Of a stretch of DNA of 64,000 nt, positions 29,482 through 33,925 are shown piece after piece. The notes under the pieces are model-generated. The model had not been told where the DNA came from and did not search any database. It saw only the letters and a program-made list of their open reading frames with translations. How positions within the stretch are numbered: the first letter of the stretch is position 1; every line of letters starts with the position of its first letter. Origin of the DNA: an uncultured virus (IMG/VR IMGVR_UViG_3300010362_000013) (Duplodnaviria > Heunggongvirae > Uroviricota > Caudoviricetes); the IMG/VR virus record IMGVR_UViG_3300010362_000013; one strand, 5' to 3'. A program made the translations under genes and the position numbers.

Positions 29482-30676
29482 GAATCGCCGTAAGTATCTA
29501 CAGTGGGTCGTTGAGCGCGGAACCGGCTCGCGTATTTATGATCCCCAGGACGGTCCGATCCGTGTTCCGTTTGTGTCACCGTTGCTGACATGGGCGGCAA
29601 CAGGCGGGATGCCGGTGGGTCATATCGGGCGCTGGTACGGCCCCGAAGGCAGCGGCAAGAGCCTTGTCAATTGGGGCTTGAGCTACTGCGCCCAGAACTA
29701 TCCGGCTGTCATGAGTGAGTACTACGAACTTGAGATCAAGTTCTGGGAGGCAAAGCGCCTGCGCCTCAAGGCGACCAGAGCCAAGCGTCAACTCAAGAAC
29801 GTGCTCAAGCGCTTCCCCGATGGCATGAGTGTTCTGCTGTTTGATACCGAGCAGCGCGCGGAACCTGAGTTCGCAGCCAAGCTCGGTGTCAATATGCATA
29901 AGGATCACTGCCTCATCATCGAGGAGAACATCATCGAAGAGATCGTTGAGGAAATGATCGGCGCGCTCGATGCCTATCACCTCATCATTATTGATAGTGC
30001 CTCGAATGCGCAGTCCTACGCGGAGGCCAATCTTGAACCCGGTGAGTACGAGCGTGGTACCGCAGCAGCGGCATGGAAGCGTCTGCGTAAGGTTCGCAAA
30101 CGTCTTGATCGCGACGAGAACACCATCATCATTGTCGATCAGGTGCGCTCCCAGGGCCTCGGCGGCAAGGTCTACGGCCCCGAGACGGCTCCACCCAATA
30201 TCCGCTTCTTGCGTCACAATGCCAGCATTGCGATCAACTTCGCGCCTGGCAAGAGGCTTTATCTCAACAACGATCGCCAGCTTGTTGATGACTACAAGAA
30301 GGCTAGCAACGATTTTATGGCACTCGGTAGCGACGGCAAGGAAGTCGCTGGTATTGAAATGCGCTGTAAGATCGATAAGAACAGCACCGGTAAGCCTTTC
30401 AGGAATGCTGTCGGTCGCTTTGCTTTCGAGGTGATGGACGCGCGGACTGGTGAATTGGTGCAGGATATGGGCTTCGATCAGGGCTTCGAGCTACTGACAA
30501 TCGCGGAGTACTTCCACATCATCGAGAGCGCGGGCGGCGGTATGTTCTATACGCTCGATGAGAAGTTCAAGCGTACGACGCAGAAGTGGAAGGGCGAATG
30601 GCGAGCCATCAATGGTATTGTCGAAGATGACGAGTTGACATTTAGGATAATGTCGCGGCTGAGGATGGCTACCTGA
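29465..30676 (+). CDS. recA: RecA/UvsX-like recombinase
   Basis: GG.PVG.I...YGPEGSGKS, FDTEQ, IIIDS, DQVR, KN motifs; insertion after Walker A. Confidence 0.9.
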   Translation: MPVDPENRRKYLQWVVERGTGSRIYDPQDGPIRVPFVSPLLTWAATGGMPVGHIGRWYGPEGSGKSLVNWGLSYCAQNYPAVMSEYYELEIKFWEAKRLRLKATRAKRQLKNVLKRFPDGMSVLLFDTEQRAEPEFAAKLGVNMHKDHCLIIEENIIEEIVEEMIGALDAYHLIIIDSASNAQSYAEANLEPGEYERGTAAAAWKRLRKVRKRLDRDENTIIIVDQVRSQGLGGKVYGPETAPPNIRFLRHNASIAINFAPGKRLYLNNDRQLVDDYKKASNDFMALGSDGKEVAGIEMRCKIDKNSTGKPFRNAVGRFAFEVMDARTGELVQDMGFDQGFELLTIAEYFHIIESAGGGMFYTLDEKFKRTTQKWKGEWRAINGIVEDDELTFRIMSRLRMAT

Positions 30677-31017
30677 TGGGGATAAAGTGGAACAAACCCG
30701 CGCGCACAGCAACGGCAGAGCGATCTACGACGCCGAAAGCCAAGGCATCTTCTATCCAGCGCCCGAAGAGCATCAAGGCGTTGAGAGCGGCGAAGTCGAA
30801 ATCGGCTCCTTCCGTAGCTTTGCCTGGCTGGTTGCGTGTGGGTTCGCGAGCGAAGCTTATCTGGCACTACGACGTGGCCTACGGTTCCGGCACCGCATCT
30901 TTCGTCGGCATCGTAACCAATCTTGACAATGGTTGGATCAGGGCCGAGAGCGACGATCATGTGATTTGTCGTCTGCCGCAGAAGATCGTGACGGTTACCC
31001 GTGTCAGTTCACGTTGA
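30676..31017 (+). CDS. Hypothetical protein (basic N-terminus, SH3-like C-terminus)
   Basis: Coupled ORF, 113 aa. Confidence 0.55.
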   Translation: MGIKWNKPARTATAERSTTPKAKASSIQRPKSIKALRAAKSKSAPSVALPGWLRVGSRAKLIWHYDVAYGSGTASFVGIVTNLDNGWIRAESDDHVICRLPQKIVTVTRVSSR

Positions 31018-31198
31018 CAAGATTCCGTTCCCGGCCACGCCCGAGGAAATGTACGAGCTACTGTGTCTTGAGGAATGGATCAAACGCGAAGGCGGACTCA
31101 CGGATCAAGGCGTGAAGGGCTATATACTCGTCAAGAGTGGTTACGTGCTCATCGATGTGTCCCGAGTGGAGGTGTATGATGGGGCTATCGCGGGGTGA
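31001..31198 (+). CDS. Hypothetical protein
   Basis: 65 aa; its 3' end carries the SD and first codons of the next gene. Confidence 0.5.
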   Translation: MSVHVDKIPFPATPEEMYELLCLEEWIKREGGLTDQGVKGYILVKSGYVLIDVSRVEVYDGAIAG

Positions 31199-31727
31199 GG
31201 AGCGAGCGGCGTGGTACTTGGCTGGCATCTTCGACGGCGAGGGCTGCGTGAGCTATACCCAGGGTAAACGTGGGTTGATTCAGAAGGTGGTTGAAATCAG
31301 TAATACTGATAGGTCGATCATCGACACTGTTGTTGCTGCTCTGGATGAACTTGAGATCTTGTACAACTTGCGTGGCCCGATCCATCTGCGCGAAGAACGT
31401 TGGACACCGTATTACTCAATACGGTTGTCAAACTATGATGCAATCGCCAAGTTCGCTCGCCTTGTGCCGTTTCAGAGCGATAGCAAGCGCGAGAAAATCG
31501 AGCATATTGTCAACTCTCGTTACGTTATGAGTCGAGAGGATTGGCCTGTTGACGAGATCGAGCGCTTGTATTGGGAAGAGAATATGAGTTGTCGAGATAT
31601 AGCATCGGTGCTTGGCATAGGCGACAGCAATGGACACAAGCGCGTGATCTACTATATGGAACAAGTCGGCATTCCTCGTCGTTCAAAGAGTGAAGCCGCC
31701 AAGGGGAGGTGGTCCTCGTCGGATTGA
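31176..31727 (+). mobile_element. LAGLIDADG homing endonuclease with C-terminal HTH, inserted at the 5' end of the exonuclease gene
   Basis: SD GGAGGTG, MMGLSRGE-ERAAWYLAGIFDGEGCV...EISNTD...; EIERLYWEENMS.RDIA...GIPRRSKSEA. Confidence 0.88.
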
Positions 31728-32830
31728 GCAGAGGGGAATTTTTTAGTCGCATCGGGTTGTTACGCGAGATCGACCCACTTACGTCGGCTGCTTATCGCTT
31801 TTCAGAAAAGCTCGAAGCTGAGAAGCCGCACAAGGGTGCGCAGGCGAGCGCACCGTGGCATGTGAGCTTCCACGGTTCACAGTTCCCTGGCGATGATCCA
31901 AAGGCGTGCGGCAGGCGCGCTATTTACACCATGCTTGACTTGCCGCGTGGTGGTTTTTCGCGTCAGTCGCGTCAGTTCATGGATGCGGGCAAGGATCTTG
32001 AGGTACAGCTAGTGCGGCGCTGGCATCAGGCAGGAATGCTGTTGTCATCCGCGCCCGATAATCCACATCAAACTGAGTTCGCGGACCCGGAGGTGTGGCT
32101 CACCTCTACTGTTGACGCAATTATTGCCAGCCCGCGTAGCTTGCGCCCGTTTGTAGGCGAGGTCAAAAACATCGCGGCAGACACGCTTGATCGGATGGTG
32201 CGCCTACTGCGTGGCCCGCATGAGGAATACGTGCGGCAGGTCAAGTGCGAGATCGGGTTGGCGCATGAGTATGGCCCCTGGACGGTTCTGCGCTGTGTCA
32301 ATAGTGGGCGCATTGCTTTGAGCGCGGGCAGACGCAATGGGAGAGGTACTGGGGCTGGTTACGTGGTTACGCTTTGCCCTGAGCATGGCGGTGATAAGTG
32401 TCTTGAGGAAGTTACGCTCAGGCCCGTGGAGCACGGGTACCTGTACTATGTGTCGCGCGACAATCCGCTTGACACTCGCGAGTACTACTACGAGCACGAT
32501 CCGGCATTCATGGATGCGGGGCGTAAGCAGTTGCGCGTGTGGCGCAAGTTCTTCGAGGAAGGCGTGCTGCCTGCGACGCAGGTGACGGGCAAGCATCCGT
32601 TCGGCTGGAACTGGACCACGGATGACTCGCCGTGCAAGTTCTGCCCGTATGGCCCGACTGGCAGCTATGTTTGCAAGGAAGACCACGCCGAGAGTGTCAA
32701 GCGTGGCGACCTGCTACCGCTGGCCGATAGTCAGGCGATCGAGGATGCGAGGCAGGTCCGACCGGACTATGATCTCGGCCTGGTCCGAGCAGCAGTGTTC
32801 GCTCGCTGGAACGGCGCTGACGGCGAATAG
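31724..32830 (+). CDS. Cas4-like / PD-(D/E)xK exonuclease (start TTG 31724 or GTG 31709)
   Basis: ACGR..Y, G...E, STVDAII...VGEVK, Q...Y, YLYYVSRD, W....PCKFCPY....C (Fe-S type Cys pattern); TTGA overlap with the endonuclease stop. Confidence 0.8.
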   Translation: MSRGEFFSRIGLLREIDPLTSAAYRFSEKLEAEKPHKGAQASAPWHVSFHGSQFPGDDPKACGRRAIYTMLDLPRGGFSRQSRQFMDAGKDLEVQLVRRWHQAGMLLSSAPDNPHQTEFADPEVWLTSTVDAIIASPRSLRPFVGEVKNIAADTLDRMVRLLRGPHEEYVRQVKCEIGLAHEYGPWTVLRCVNSGRIALSAGRRNGRGTGAGYVVTLCPEHGGDKCLEEVTLRPVEHGYLYYVSRDNPLDTREYYYEHDPAFMDAGRKQLRVWRKFFEEGVLPATQVTGKHPFGWNWTTDDSPCKFCPYGPTGSYVCKEDHAESVKRGDLLPLADSQAIEDARQVRPDYDLGLVRAAVFARWNGADGE

Positions 32831-32926
32831 CCCCCGTAGGGGGCTTCATCTAGGCTTGATCCCAGCGGCGAGAAGCTGCTATGGTGTCCGGCGACAACAC
32901 CCGACGAGCCGACAGGAGGCTTAGCT

Positions 32927-33925
32927 GTGCCGCAGTTGGAAGAATTGAAGCTGGACGATGAGCACGCCAAGGCGATCATCGATCTCGGTATCGAGTACGA
33001 GGCGTACGATTCAGACGCCCCGGAGACGAAGAAGGAGCGGCTTGCTGCCGCGAACGAGATCATCGCGTTCTGCATTGATGCCGTCATCACTGACGACATG
33101 ACGCCGGACAGCGATGACCCGGAGACAGCAGAGTCCGGCGTCAAGATCGCTGAGATCCTTGCCCTTGCAGGCGTGGAGATTGACGAAGACGACAATGTTG
33201 AGTTCGGTGAGCTTCCCGATCTCGACGCAGAGGCGGACGAGGACGAAGAAGACGAAGACGAAGAGGACGAGGAAGACGAAGACGAGGCTCCGTTCGACCC
33301 GGACGACTACATCGACGGCTACACGGAAATGCGTGTGTCCGAGAAGGTGAAGGCGATCGGGGAAGCGCTCGACCCGGATGACGACGACGACGTTGCCACC
33401 CTTGAGGCGCTTGCCGAATGGGAGAACGAGCAGGACAAGCCTTCGTCGCGAGTGCTGAACACCATTGAGGAAATGCTCGGCGAGGAGGAGGACGAGGACG
33501 AGGCCGACGACAATGGTGACGACGAGGAGCCGGAGGCTGAGGCCGACGAGGACGAGCCTGCCGACGAGGAGCCGTGGGAGGGCTACGACAAGTCGTCAGC
33601 AGTGGAGATCAAGAAGATCCTGAGTGAGCAGCTTGAGGACGAGGACGAGCCGCTGACCGCCGAGCAGGTCGAATACGTGCTCGACTACGAGCGCAATCGC
33701 GAGAAGCCGCCGCCCCGCAAGCGCGTCATCACTTTCTGCGAAGATCTCCTCAAGGGCTTCGAGGAGGAGGCCGAAGAGGAGAAGCCGAAGAAGAGCGGCG
33801 GACTCAAGGCGCAGCGCGACAAGAAGCGCGACGAGGCCCCCGCTGCCAGCAATGGCGTCATCGTTCTGACCCGCGAGCAGATCCTTACCGCGCTCGATTC
33901 GGGCGAGGTCACGATCGAACTCTGA
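32927..33925 (+). CDS. Highly acidic protein with two repeated helical domains
   Basis: Asp/Glu tracts; two GY..xx.E...L....E.....R.RV repeats; own promoter TTGATC-18-TATGGT and SD AGGAGG. Confidence 0.7.
   Translation: MPQLEELKLDDEHAKAIIDLGIEYEAYDSDAPETKKERLAAANEIIAFCIDAVITDDMTPDSDDPETAESGVKIAEILALAGVEIDEDDNVEFGELPDLDAEADEDEEDEDEEDEEDEDEAPFDPDDYIDGYTEMRVSEKVKAIGEALDPDDDDDVATLEALAEWENEQDKPSSRVLNTIEEMLGEEEDEDEADDNGDDEEPEAEADEDEPADEEPWEGYDKSSAVEIKKILSEQLEDEDEPLTAEQVEYVLDYERNREKPPPRKRVITFCEDLLKGFEEEAEEEKPKKSGGLKAQRDKKRDEAPAASNGVIVLTREQILTALDSGEVTIEL

Follow-up and report, generated by a model that had tools for sequence, protein, structure and literature searches.

Organisation of the locus

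The stretch of DNA analysed here (64,000 nucleotides, hereafter the window) comes from an uncultured virus of the Caudoviricetes (IMG/VR IMGVR_UViG_3300010362_000013), and the segment in focus (positions 31,018–32,830) contains the end of a small upstream gene, a gene for a free-standing LAGLIDADG homing endonuclease and a gene for a nuclease with a Cas4/lambda-exonuclease fold. The hexapeptide GLSRGE is encoded twice in this segment, at the beginning of the endonuclease open reading frame (ORF) and again at the beginning of the nuclease. On the endonuclease side, the ribosome-binding site GGAGGTG is followed by T, ATG (31176), a second ATG (31179) and the six codons of copy 1 (Table 1), after which the frame continues with GAG CGA GCG GCG TGG TAC TTG GCT GGC ATC TTC GAC GGC GAG GGC, encoding the LAGLIDADG helix. 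On the nuclease side, a second GGAGGTG (31705–31711) is followed by GTCCTCGTC, the six codons of copy 2 and TTT TTT AGT CGC ATC. The two copies differ in all six codons and in 10 of 18 bases, and translation of the 64-kb window in six frames gives GLSRGE nowhere else. The endonuclease stop codon TGA (31725–31727) lies over the TTG at 31724. The preliminary description of this DNA had pointed out the doubled hexapeptide, the shared ribosome-binding site, the six differing codons and the overlap of stop codon and TTG, and the sequence reads exactly so.

The region in front of the hexapeptide is repeated as well, as a direct repeat (D6) at 31162–31174 (CCGAGTGGAGGTG) and 31699–31711 (CCAAGGGGAGGTG) with 85% identity and a spacing of 537 bases. 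An exact 9-base repeat (TCCTCGTCG, at 31673 and 31713) is at chance level for a region of 700 bases, where about one such repeat is expected. The first ribosome-binding site has a predicted duplex energy of −13.1 kcal/mol with a generic anti-Shine-Dalgarno tail and lies 3 bases 5′ of the ATG at 31179. The last seven codons and the stop codon of the upstream gene (..VEVYDGAIAG*) lie over the endonuclease start and are read in another frame.

This arrangement is probably the result of the in-frame insertion of a free-standing LAGLIDADG cassette after the seventh codon (M-GLSRGE) of the nuclease gene. The start-capture architecture as such, in which the endonuclease is fused to the native first codons of its host gene, is well supported by the comparisons with related sequences that are described below.

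Table 1. Features predicted at the junction between the endonuclease and nuclease genes (window coordinates)
Feature	Position	Strand	Basis
Small conserved upstream gene (65 amino acids)	31001..31198	+	ORF list; homologous ORFs 5′ of the nuclease gene in L084, L085 and L087
Ribosome-binding site (GGAGGTG) native to the nuclease gene and predicted to serve the endonuclease at present	31168..31174	+	Sequence; empty-site relatives
Free-standing LAGLIDADG homing endonuclease gene (182 amino acids); alternative start ATG 31176	31179..31727	+	Pfam PF14528, PHROG
Copy 1 of GLSRGE (GGG CTA TCG CGG GGT GAG), captured native nuclease codons fused in frame to the endonuclease	31182..31199	+	
Second ribosome-site region (CCAAGGGGAGGTG), inside the last codons of the endonuclease (K-G-R-W)	31699..31711	+	Repeat D6
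Conserved phage nuclease gene, Cas4/lambda-exonuclease fold; start GTG 31709 or TTG 31724	31709..32830	+	Homologues, AlphaFold, Foldseek
Copy 2 of GLSRGE (GGA TTG AGC AGA GGG GAA), putative respelled replacement N-terminus of the nuclease	31721..31738	+	
TTGA, endonuclease stop codon over the candidate TTG start of the nuclease	31724..31727	+	Same layout, TGA in the Leu codon, in L004 and L094

The nuclease and its native N-terminus

The nuclease ORF encodes 370–373 amino acids and ends at 32830. It has 180 homologues at E ≤ 0.001, and starts were counted in the best 120 of these. The sequence begins exactly with [MVL]GL[ST]R in 53 of the 120 and exactly with [MVL]GLSRGE in 26, and the motif [ST]RxE lies within the first 40 residues in 102; the remaining 18 are mostly fragments or gene calls from a later methionine. 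The arginine and the glutamate of GLSRGE are invariant in an alignment of 74 nuclease sequences. Since the homologues begin in this way and keep both residues, GLSRGE is the native start of the nuclease family, and it is this native start that the endonuclease has taken. It had been predicted that the exonuclease of endonuclease-free relatives would start like MGLSRGEFF, which holds at the protein level, as the family begins with M-GLSRGEF(F/L).

Among the 31 closest homologues, 11 (P0004, P0011, P0013, P0017, P0023, P0024 and P0026–P0030) have no GL[ST]R in the first 25 residues. Six of these are gene calls from a later methionine (MLREIDPL.. or similar), and the others are N-terminally truncated or fragmentary. 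Behind some of the 11 there may be additional alleles that carry an endonuclease, or starts that are disrupted.

The AlphaFold model of the nuclease (predicted local distance difference test score, pLDDT, 94.9) was matched by Foldseek to LHK-Exo (E 1.1e-4), lambda exonuclease (2.6e-4), Cas4 SSO0001 (8.8e-4) and a type I-C Cas4 (9.3e-4), with template modelling (TM) scores on the target of 0.50–0.64. In the alignment, D136 and K153 are invariant and E151 is nearly so, forming the catalytic motif D...ExK, and C67, C309, C312 and C322 are invariant, with a spacing that we take to be Cas4-like. In searches with sequence profiles, the sole Pfam match at E ≤ 0.1 is the unrelated YgfZ_barrel (weak, E 0.055), one weak PHROG match is annotated 'CRISPR/Cas system associated' (E 0.002), and no match was found in NCBIfam or among PDB sequences. 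The earlier label "Cas4-like exonuclease" is therefore fair by fold, though no Pfam, NCBIfam or PDB sequence profile assigns the protein to a nuclease family. The nuclease family also has invariant C196, C223, H226 and C231 (residues 196–231), which suggests an extra metal-binding insertion in the region of the beta-sheet.

The endonuclease and its relatives

The endonuclease ORF matches Pfam PF14528 (E 6.7e-12, above the family cut-off) as well as endonuclease families of PHROG. It is intact and contains a single LAGLIDADG motif (YLAGIFDGEG, 31215–31244) with the acidic residue present, and its C-terminal part is helix-turn-helix-like, with weak matches to HTH_38 and Clr5 at residues 126–147. 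The GC content of the endonuclease gene is 0.51, compared with 0.59 for the nuclease gene and 0.56 for the window.

An exhaustive HMMER search with the endonuclease gave 576 relatives at E ≤ 1e-3, of which the best 150 were examined together with P0121 and P0123 (152 in all), while a word-based search found just two close relatives, P0122 and P0123. The N-terminus of P0122 is MGLSRGEDRAAWYLAG, and P0123 reads ..VGLTREQERAAWYLAG (GLTREQ) behind an over-extended gene call. A start of the form [MV]GL[ST] is present in 9 of the 152, namely P0121 (the window's own endonuclease), P0122, P0124–P0128, P0133 and P0173, all of them among the closest matches, whereas distant relatives have other N-termini (e.g. 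MITTREQASWYLAG or MTRQEAAAYLAG). Because this start is found in the closest relatives and is absent in the distant ones, start capture is, on this comparison, a shared and old feature of one endonuclease sub-lineage that appears to be tied to this nuclease gene; the endonucleases sharing it are 38–67% identical. In P0125, a 6-residue insert lies exactly between GLSRGE and ERAAW, thus marking the fusion point between GLSRGE and the endonuclease.

No match was found in isolated phages, either by blastn of 30600–33000 or by tblastn of the two proteins (nuclease and endonuclease). Bacterial and archaeal genomes gave none with the nuclease profile or with a degenerate pattern of the junction, nor did viral contigs scanned with the single endonuclease protein. 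A metagenome scan with the endonuclease alignment, one pattern of which was too general, gave mostly distant LAGLIDADG genes; L004 alone was found at the nuclease site, and the contig of P0122 was missed.

Occupied and empty sites in related contigs

DNA was available for 16 contigs, comprising the window and loci L084–L098 (L084, L085, L087 and L088 being contigs L001–L004). The junction holds an endonuclease in three of them (the window, L088 = L004 and L094) and a different insert in one (L087), and it is empty in 12, in which the upstream gene is directly followed by the nuclease gene. These empty sites are scattered among the clades. In the empty alleles, GGAGG lies 5–6 bases 5′ of a GTG or ATG start of the nuclease, as in L084 (GGAGGTGAAC GTG GGT CTT TCA AGG GGC GAG). 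Such variable occupancy of a single site is what is expected of a homing endonuclease.

The two other occupied alleles are built like that of the window. In L004, the endonuclease starts with ATG GGC TTG ACA CCG GAA CAG GAT CGG GCT GCC TGG and the nuclease with GTG GGT TTG ACG CGG GCC GAG TTC TGG, the endonuclease TGA lying inside GGT TTG ACG. In L094, the corresponding starts are GTG GGC TTG ACA CGC GCT GAG GAG CGA GCG GCT TGG and GTG GGC TTG AGC AGG ATG GAG TTC TGG, and the TGA is again inside the Leu-Ser codons.

Comparison with the empty and differently filled sites distinguishes the two copies in the window. The 33-base stretch 31166–31198, which comprises the end of the upstream gene and copy 1, is 84.8% identical to L087. 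Counted by eye, copy 1 shares 15 of its 18 bases with the L087 allele, compared with 10 of 18 for copy 2; of the bases of copy 2, 9–10 of 18 agree with the empty alleles of its own clade and 13 of 18 with the second copy in the distant L094. As copy 1 is closer to the L087 allele and copy 2 is nearest to copy 2 of L094, copy 1 is the resident sequence, and copy 2 is best read as travelling with the cassette or being shaped by it. The L087-like copy 1 and the continuous frame behind it agree with the earlier proposal that the element lies in frame a few codons into the nuclease gene and has taken the native ribosome-binding site and start.

The identities of the two genes are incongruent among the occupied alleles. 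L004 and L094 share 81.5% identity in the nuclease but only 39.5% in the endonuclease (L004 4001–4513, L094 2025–2510); between the window and L004, the values are 46.8% for the nuclease and 45.9% for the endonuclease, so that the endonuclease of L004 is nearer to that of the window than to that of L094. Different endonuclease lineages at one site in close phages favour horizontal movement over purely vertical descent, and these identities thus argue for an endonuclease element that moves horizontally.

The insert of L087 lies at the same junction, after GLSRGE, and is 130 bases long (L003 3830–4030 = L087 2340–2530). On its flanks lie an exact direct repeat of 20 bases (GGGGTTATCACGGGGTGAAT) and a second repeat (CAATAGTGGG), and the insert opens a 51-amino-acid ORF starting with LGLSRGE. 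The insert was considered as an endonuclease remnant, which was rejected, as it has no similarity to the three endonuclease genes beyond the duplicated start; it could be the footprint of aberrant repair or of cassette loss. It was also considered whether the duplication is forced by an overlap between the upstream gene and the nuclease start. Such an overlap fits the window, L087 and L004 but not L090, L084 and L085, and is therefore not general: the upstream gene of L090 (an empty site) ends ahead of the nuclease start, and L084 and L085 have overlaps of quite another form.

The gene order is kept across the loci, with a UvsX-like recombinase gene followed by one or two small genes and then by the nuclease gene. 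A gene for a very acidic (D/E-rich) protein of 332 amino acids lies 3′ of the nuclease gene in the window (32927–33925), and its position is kept in L001 (5154–6158) and L004 (5808–6932). No PHROG family was matched by the acidic protein of the window.

Proposed mode of action

In the proposed scheme, the endonuclease would be translated from the captured start and native ribosome-binding site of the nuclease, and the nuclease would be re-initiated at TTG 31724 (or GTG 31709), coupled to the endonuclease stop codon; we infer translational coupling at TTGA. In a mixed infection, alleles lacking the endonuclease would be cut by the enzyme close to the junction, at the Glu-Phe codons, and repair would copy the cassette together with the replacement 5′ end, as in intron-less homing. 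The carrier allele would be protected, since one half-site now runs into endonuclease sequence and the other half-site is respelled.

Evidence against the proposed scheme and alternative explanations

Several points weigh against this scheme. What we infer from sequence comparison includes homing itself, the position of the cut, protection by respelling and initiation at the TTG, and the comparison of endonuclease-bearing alleles at the DNA level includes three alleles (the window, L004 and L094). The point of re-initiation is a further difficulty. The usual start position of the nuclease family is occupied in the window by GTC (31718–31720), which is no start codon. The second ribosome-binding site is strong (−14.3 kcal/mol) and lies 5 bases 5′ of this GTC but 11 bases 5′ of TTG 31724, which is a long spacing, and GTG 31709 has by itself a weak ribosome-binding site, one base away. 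The endonuclease tail of the 64%-identical relative P0123 (..RRWTSSG) resembles that of the window (..GRWSSSD), and if P0123 has the same frame offset, its codon before the glycine could not end in G. As GTC is not a start codon and the site of GTG 31709 is weak, and in view of this tail, initiation at TTG 31724, the Leu-position codon with which the stop overlaps (NTGA), seems likelier than at GTG 31709. A nuclease initiated there would be M-SRGEFF and would keep the invariant arginine and glutamate.

The respelling of copy 2 is also open to a less purposeful interpretation. With random synonymous spellings drawn from the codon usage of 52 script-picked ORFs of the window, all six codons differ with a probability of about 0.10, which is not significant. 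The number of differing bases is more unusual, 10 being observed against a simulated mean of 5.4 (P 0.004), and leucine, serine and arginine all switch codon box between the copies. Two of these three switches (Leu TTG and Ser AGC), however, are forced by the overlapping TGA, as in L094, and copy 1 is constrained too, because the upstream gene reads the same bases in another frame (..GAIAG*). Much of the apparent recoding may therefore be a by-product, and saturated divergence is expected in any case if the capture is as old as the 38–67% identity among its sharers implies. In L004 (GLTPEQ and GLTRAE) and L094 (GLTRAE and GLSRME), the copies differ in protein as well, which is drift-like, and the junction of L087 keeps its 20-base repeat exact and without respelling. 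Adaptive respelling, whether for immunity to self-cleavage or for avoidance of deletion, is thus plausible but unproven. The codons after the duplicate had also been described as atypically AT-rich, which does not hold, as the first 20 codons have a GC content at third codon positions (GC3) of 0.55 and rank 26th among the 52 ORFs (mean 0.573, standard deviation 0.116).

On much the same evidence, the duplication may be old and now immobile, being inherited vertically, with codon differences that represent saturated drift shaped by two overlapping frames. The divergence of the sharers, the modest improbability of six differing codons, the dictation of TTG and AGC by the TGA stop (in L004 as in L094) and the protein divergence of the copies in both contigs would all suit such a history, as would the similar identities of endonuclease and nuclease between the window and L004. 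Immobility is nevertheless unlikely, since it sits poorly with the 81.5% against 39.5% identity of nucleases and endonucleases in L004 and L094, with 12 of 16 contigs being empty and scattered among clades, with an intact ORF that retains its acidic LAGLIDADG residue, and with base differences in excess of random respelling.

Genes for LAGLIDADG enzymes are common in introns and inteins, and the endonuclease could accordingly lie in a self-splicing intron or be an intein, so that the nuclease would be made from spliced RNA or protein and the second GLSRGE would be irrelevant. The upstream 65-amino-acid ORF and the nuclease ORF do share a frame, at a distance of 537 bases (179 codons). No Rfam family, however, matches either strand of 30600–32400 at E ≤ 1, the 537-base insert is almost wholly filled by the endonuclease ORF and leaves no room for a ribozyme core, and the endonuclease, which is read in another frame than the nuclease, terminates at its own TGA, so that intron and intein are both rejected. 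Homologues of the nuclease, moreover, begin at GLSRGE without an extension resembling the upstream ORF, and a complete second N-terminus would be needless under splicing. Splicing of either kind is thus very improbable, and the absence of an intron match and of an intein layout is in line with the "splicing-free" arrangement of the preliminary description. A chance resemblance between the two N-termini, for which it can be said that the AAxYLAG helix of distant endonucleases is frequently preceded by T-R-E-Q or S-x-E-E (e.g. MITTREQASWYLAG), a weakly [ST]RxE-like sequence, is scarcely credible when the six-frame translation has GLSRGE at just two places, the duplication extends to the ribosome-site region, the closest endonuclease clusters all begin with MGL[ST] like the nuclease family while distant ones do not, and copy 1 together with the end of the upstream gene is homologous in DNA to an endonuclease-free relative.

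Relation to known mobile elements

Free-standing phage endonucleases such as the Seg and Mob enzymes of T4 and F-CphI are known for intron-less homing, and their genes are described as lying between other genes or breaking them into pieces. The element in the window resembles them in being a free-standing endonuclease gene beside or inside an essential or conserved gene, with a presence that varies among relatives and a carrier allele that is presumed to be protected by differences in the target sequence. The ribonucleotide reductase of phage Aeh1 is reportedly encoded by genes in pieces and made of split subunits. In T4 gene 60, an endonuclease-linked insert is reportedly tolerated through ribosomal bypassing (bioRxiv 10.1101/2022.08.31.505936). 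The window locus would share with these two cases a mobile endonuclease-associated insert in a coding region whose function is kept without RNA or protein splicing; unlike the bypassing of the one and the split subunits of the other, the gene in the window would be restarted from a duplicated and respelled 5′ end. Within the limited phage literature covered (including PMC10448857, with subscription papers outside its scope), no in-frame takeover of the start of a target gene with a rebuilt N-terminus was found.

The closest described parallel is the gene hybrids of fungal mitochondria. According to PMC3630166 (citing Paquin et al. 1994), mobile endonuclease ORFs (mORFs) form such hybrids with atp6 of Allomyces macrogynus and with atp6, atp9, cox2 and nad3 of Glomus, the endonuclease ORF being in phase with the gene and the foreign C-terminal duplicate having diverged in DNA with its protein conserved; C-terminal duplications beside LAGLIDADG and GIY-YIG ORFs are likewise described in PMC6279837. 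As in the mORF hybrids so described, the endonuclease in the window is in phase with its host gene (by fusion to seven native codons), a terminal segment is doubled, with copy 1 being relative-like (15 of 18 bases shared with L087) and copy 2 diverged (10 of 18), no splicing is needed and the insert is absent from close relatives. In the fungal hybrids it is the C-terminus that is affected, a foreign end replacing the native end and the endonuclease following the gene, whereas in the window it is the N-terminus. Unlike those mORFs, the window element would take the ribosome-binding site and start and must supply new ones overlapping its own stop codon; its host is a phage and not a mitochondrion, and the duplicate is just 6–7 codons long. 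Since the affected end is the N-terminus and the gene belongs to a phage, the element would be similar to the mORF hybrids in its working but outside the set described.

Endonuclease starts at other genes

In an exploratory survey, the starts of 163 ORFs of the fetched loci that match a hidden Markov model of the endonuclease alignment were compared with the start of the next gene. At least two identical residues after the start codon were found in 11 of the 163 pairs, from 8 distinct contigs (L004, L088 and L099 being one contig, and L094 and L100 another), compared with 213 of 26,406 mismatched control pairs (0.8%). These counts exclude the window, whose nuclease has GTC, no start codon, at the relevant position.

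Three further groups beyond the nuclease site are hinted at by short runs and are given as leads only. The first comprises L117 (1983–2600), L118 (1356–1970) and L150 (1980–2594), with endonucleases starting MTTS.., MTTT.. and MTTI.. and next genes starting MTTSG.., MTTSG.. and MTTTG.., respectively. These pairs have an ATGA overlap and a ribosome-binding site (GGTGGAGG; GGTGGAAT in L150) inside the last codons of the endonuclease, and the next gene matches phrog_12985 (function unknown) in L117 and L150, the two that were tested. L108 (about 1983–2600), of the same family as L117, has MATS in the endonuclease and MTTS in the next gene. L117, L118, L150 and L108 possibly represent the same start capture at another gene. 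The second group consists of L030 (2308–2760) and L106 (1947–2490), with MPL.. in the endonuclease and MPLIKS.. in the next gene, and the third of L026 (3989–4450), where both the endonuclease and the next gene, encoding an Ig-domain protein (phrog_2175), start with MAL... The M-P-L and M-A-L runs are short and may have arisen by chance.

It is conceivable, though we lean slightly against it, that gene starts are the homing target of an entire lineage of LAGLIDADG endonucleases in phages, each element entering within the first few codons, hijacking the ribosome-binding site and start for its own translation and supplying a replacement ribosome-binding site, start and respelled N-terminus with a restart coupled to its stop codon, in which case the fusion point would be the cut site and the respelling the mark of immunity.

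Significance

Genes for homing endonucleases that sit on the start of a neighbour call for care in annotation, as the first codons of an endonuclease-adjacent gene may be foreign. The proposed capture would also account for nuclease genes that are called from a later methionine, for odd TTG and GTG starts and for short N-terminal 'stubs'. If the proposed scheme is correct, the fusion junction would predict the target of the enzyme from sequence only and could be used to mine metagenomes for site-specific nucleases. Homing endonucleases would then be able to invade a seemingly essential gene right at its start with no need for an intron, an intein or gene splitting, the invader gaining the translation signals of the host gene and its precise loss being made difficult.

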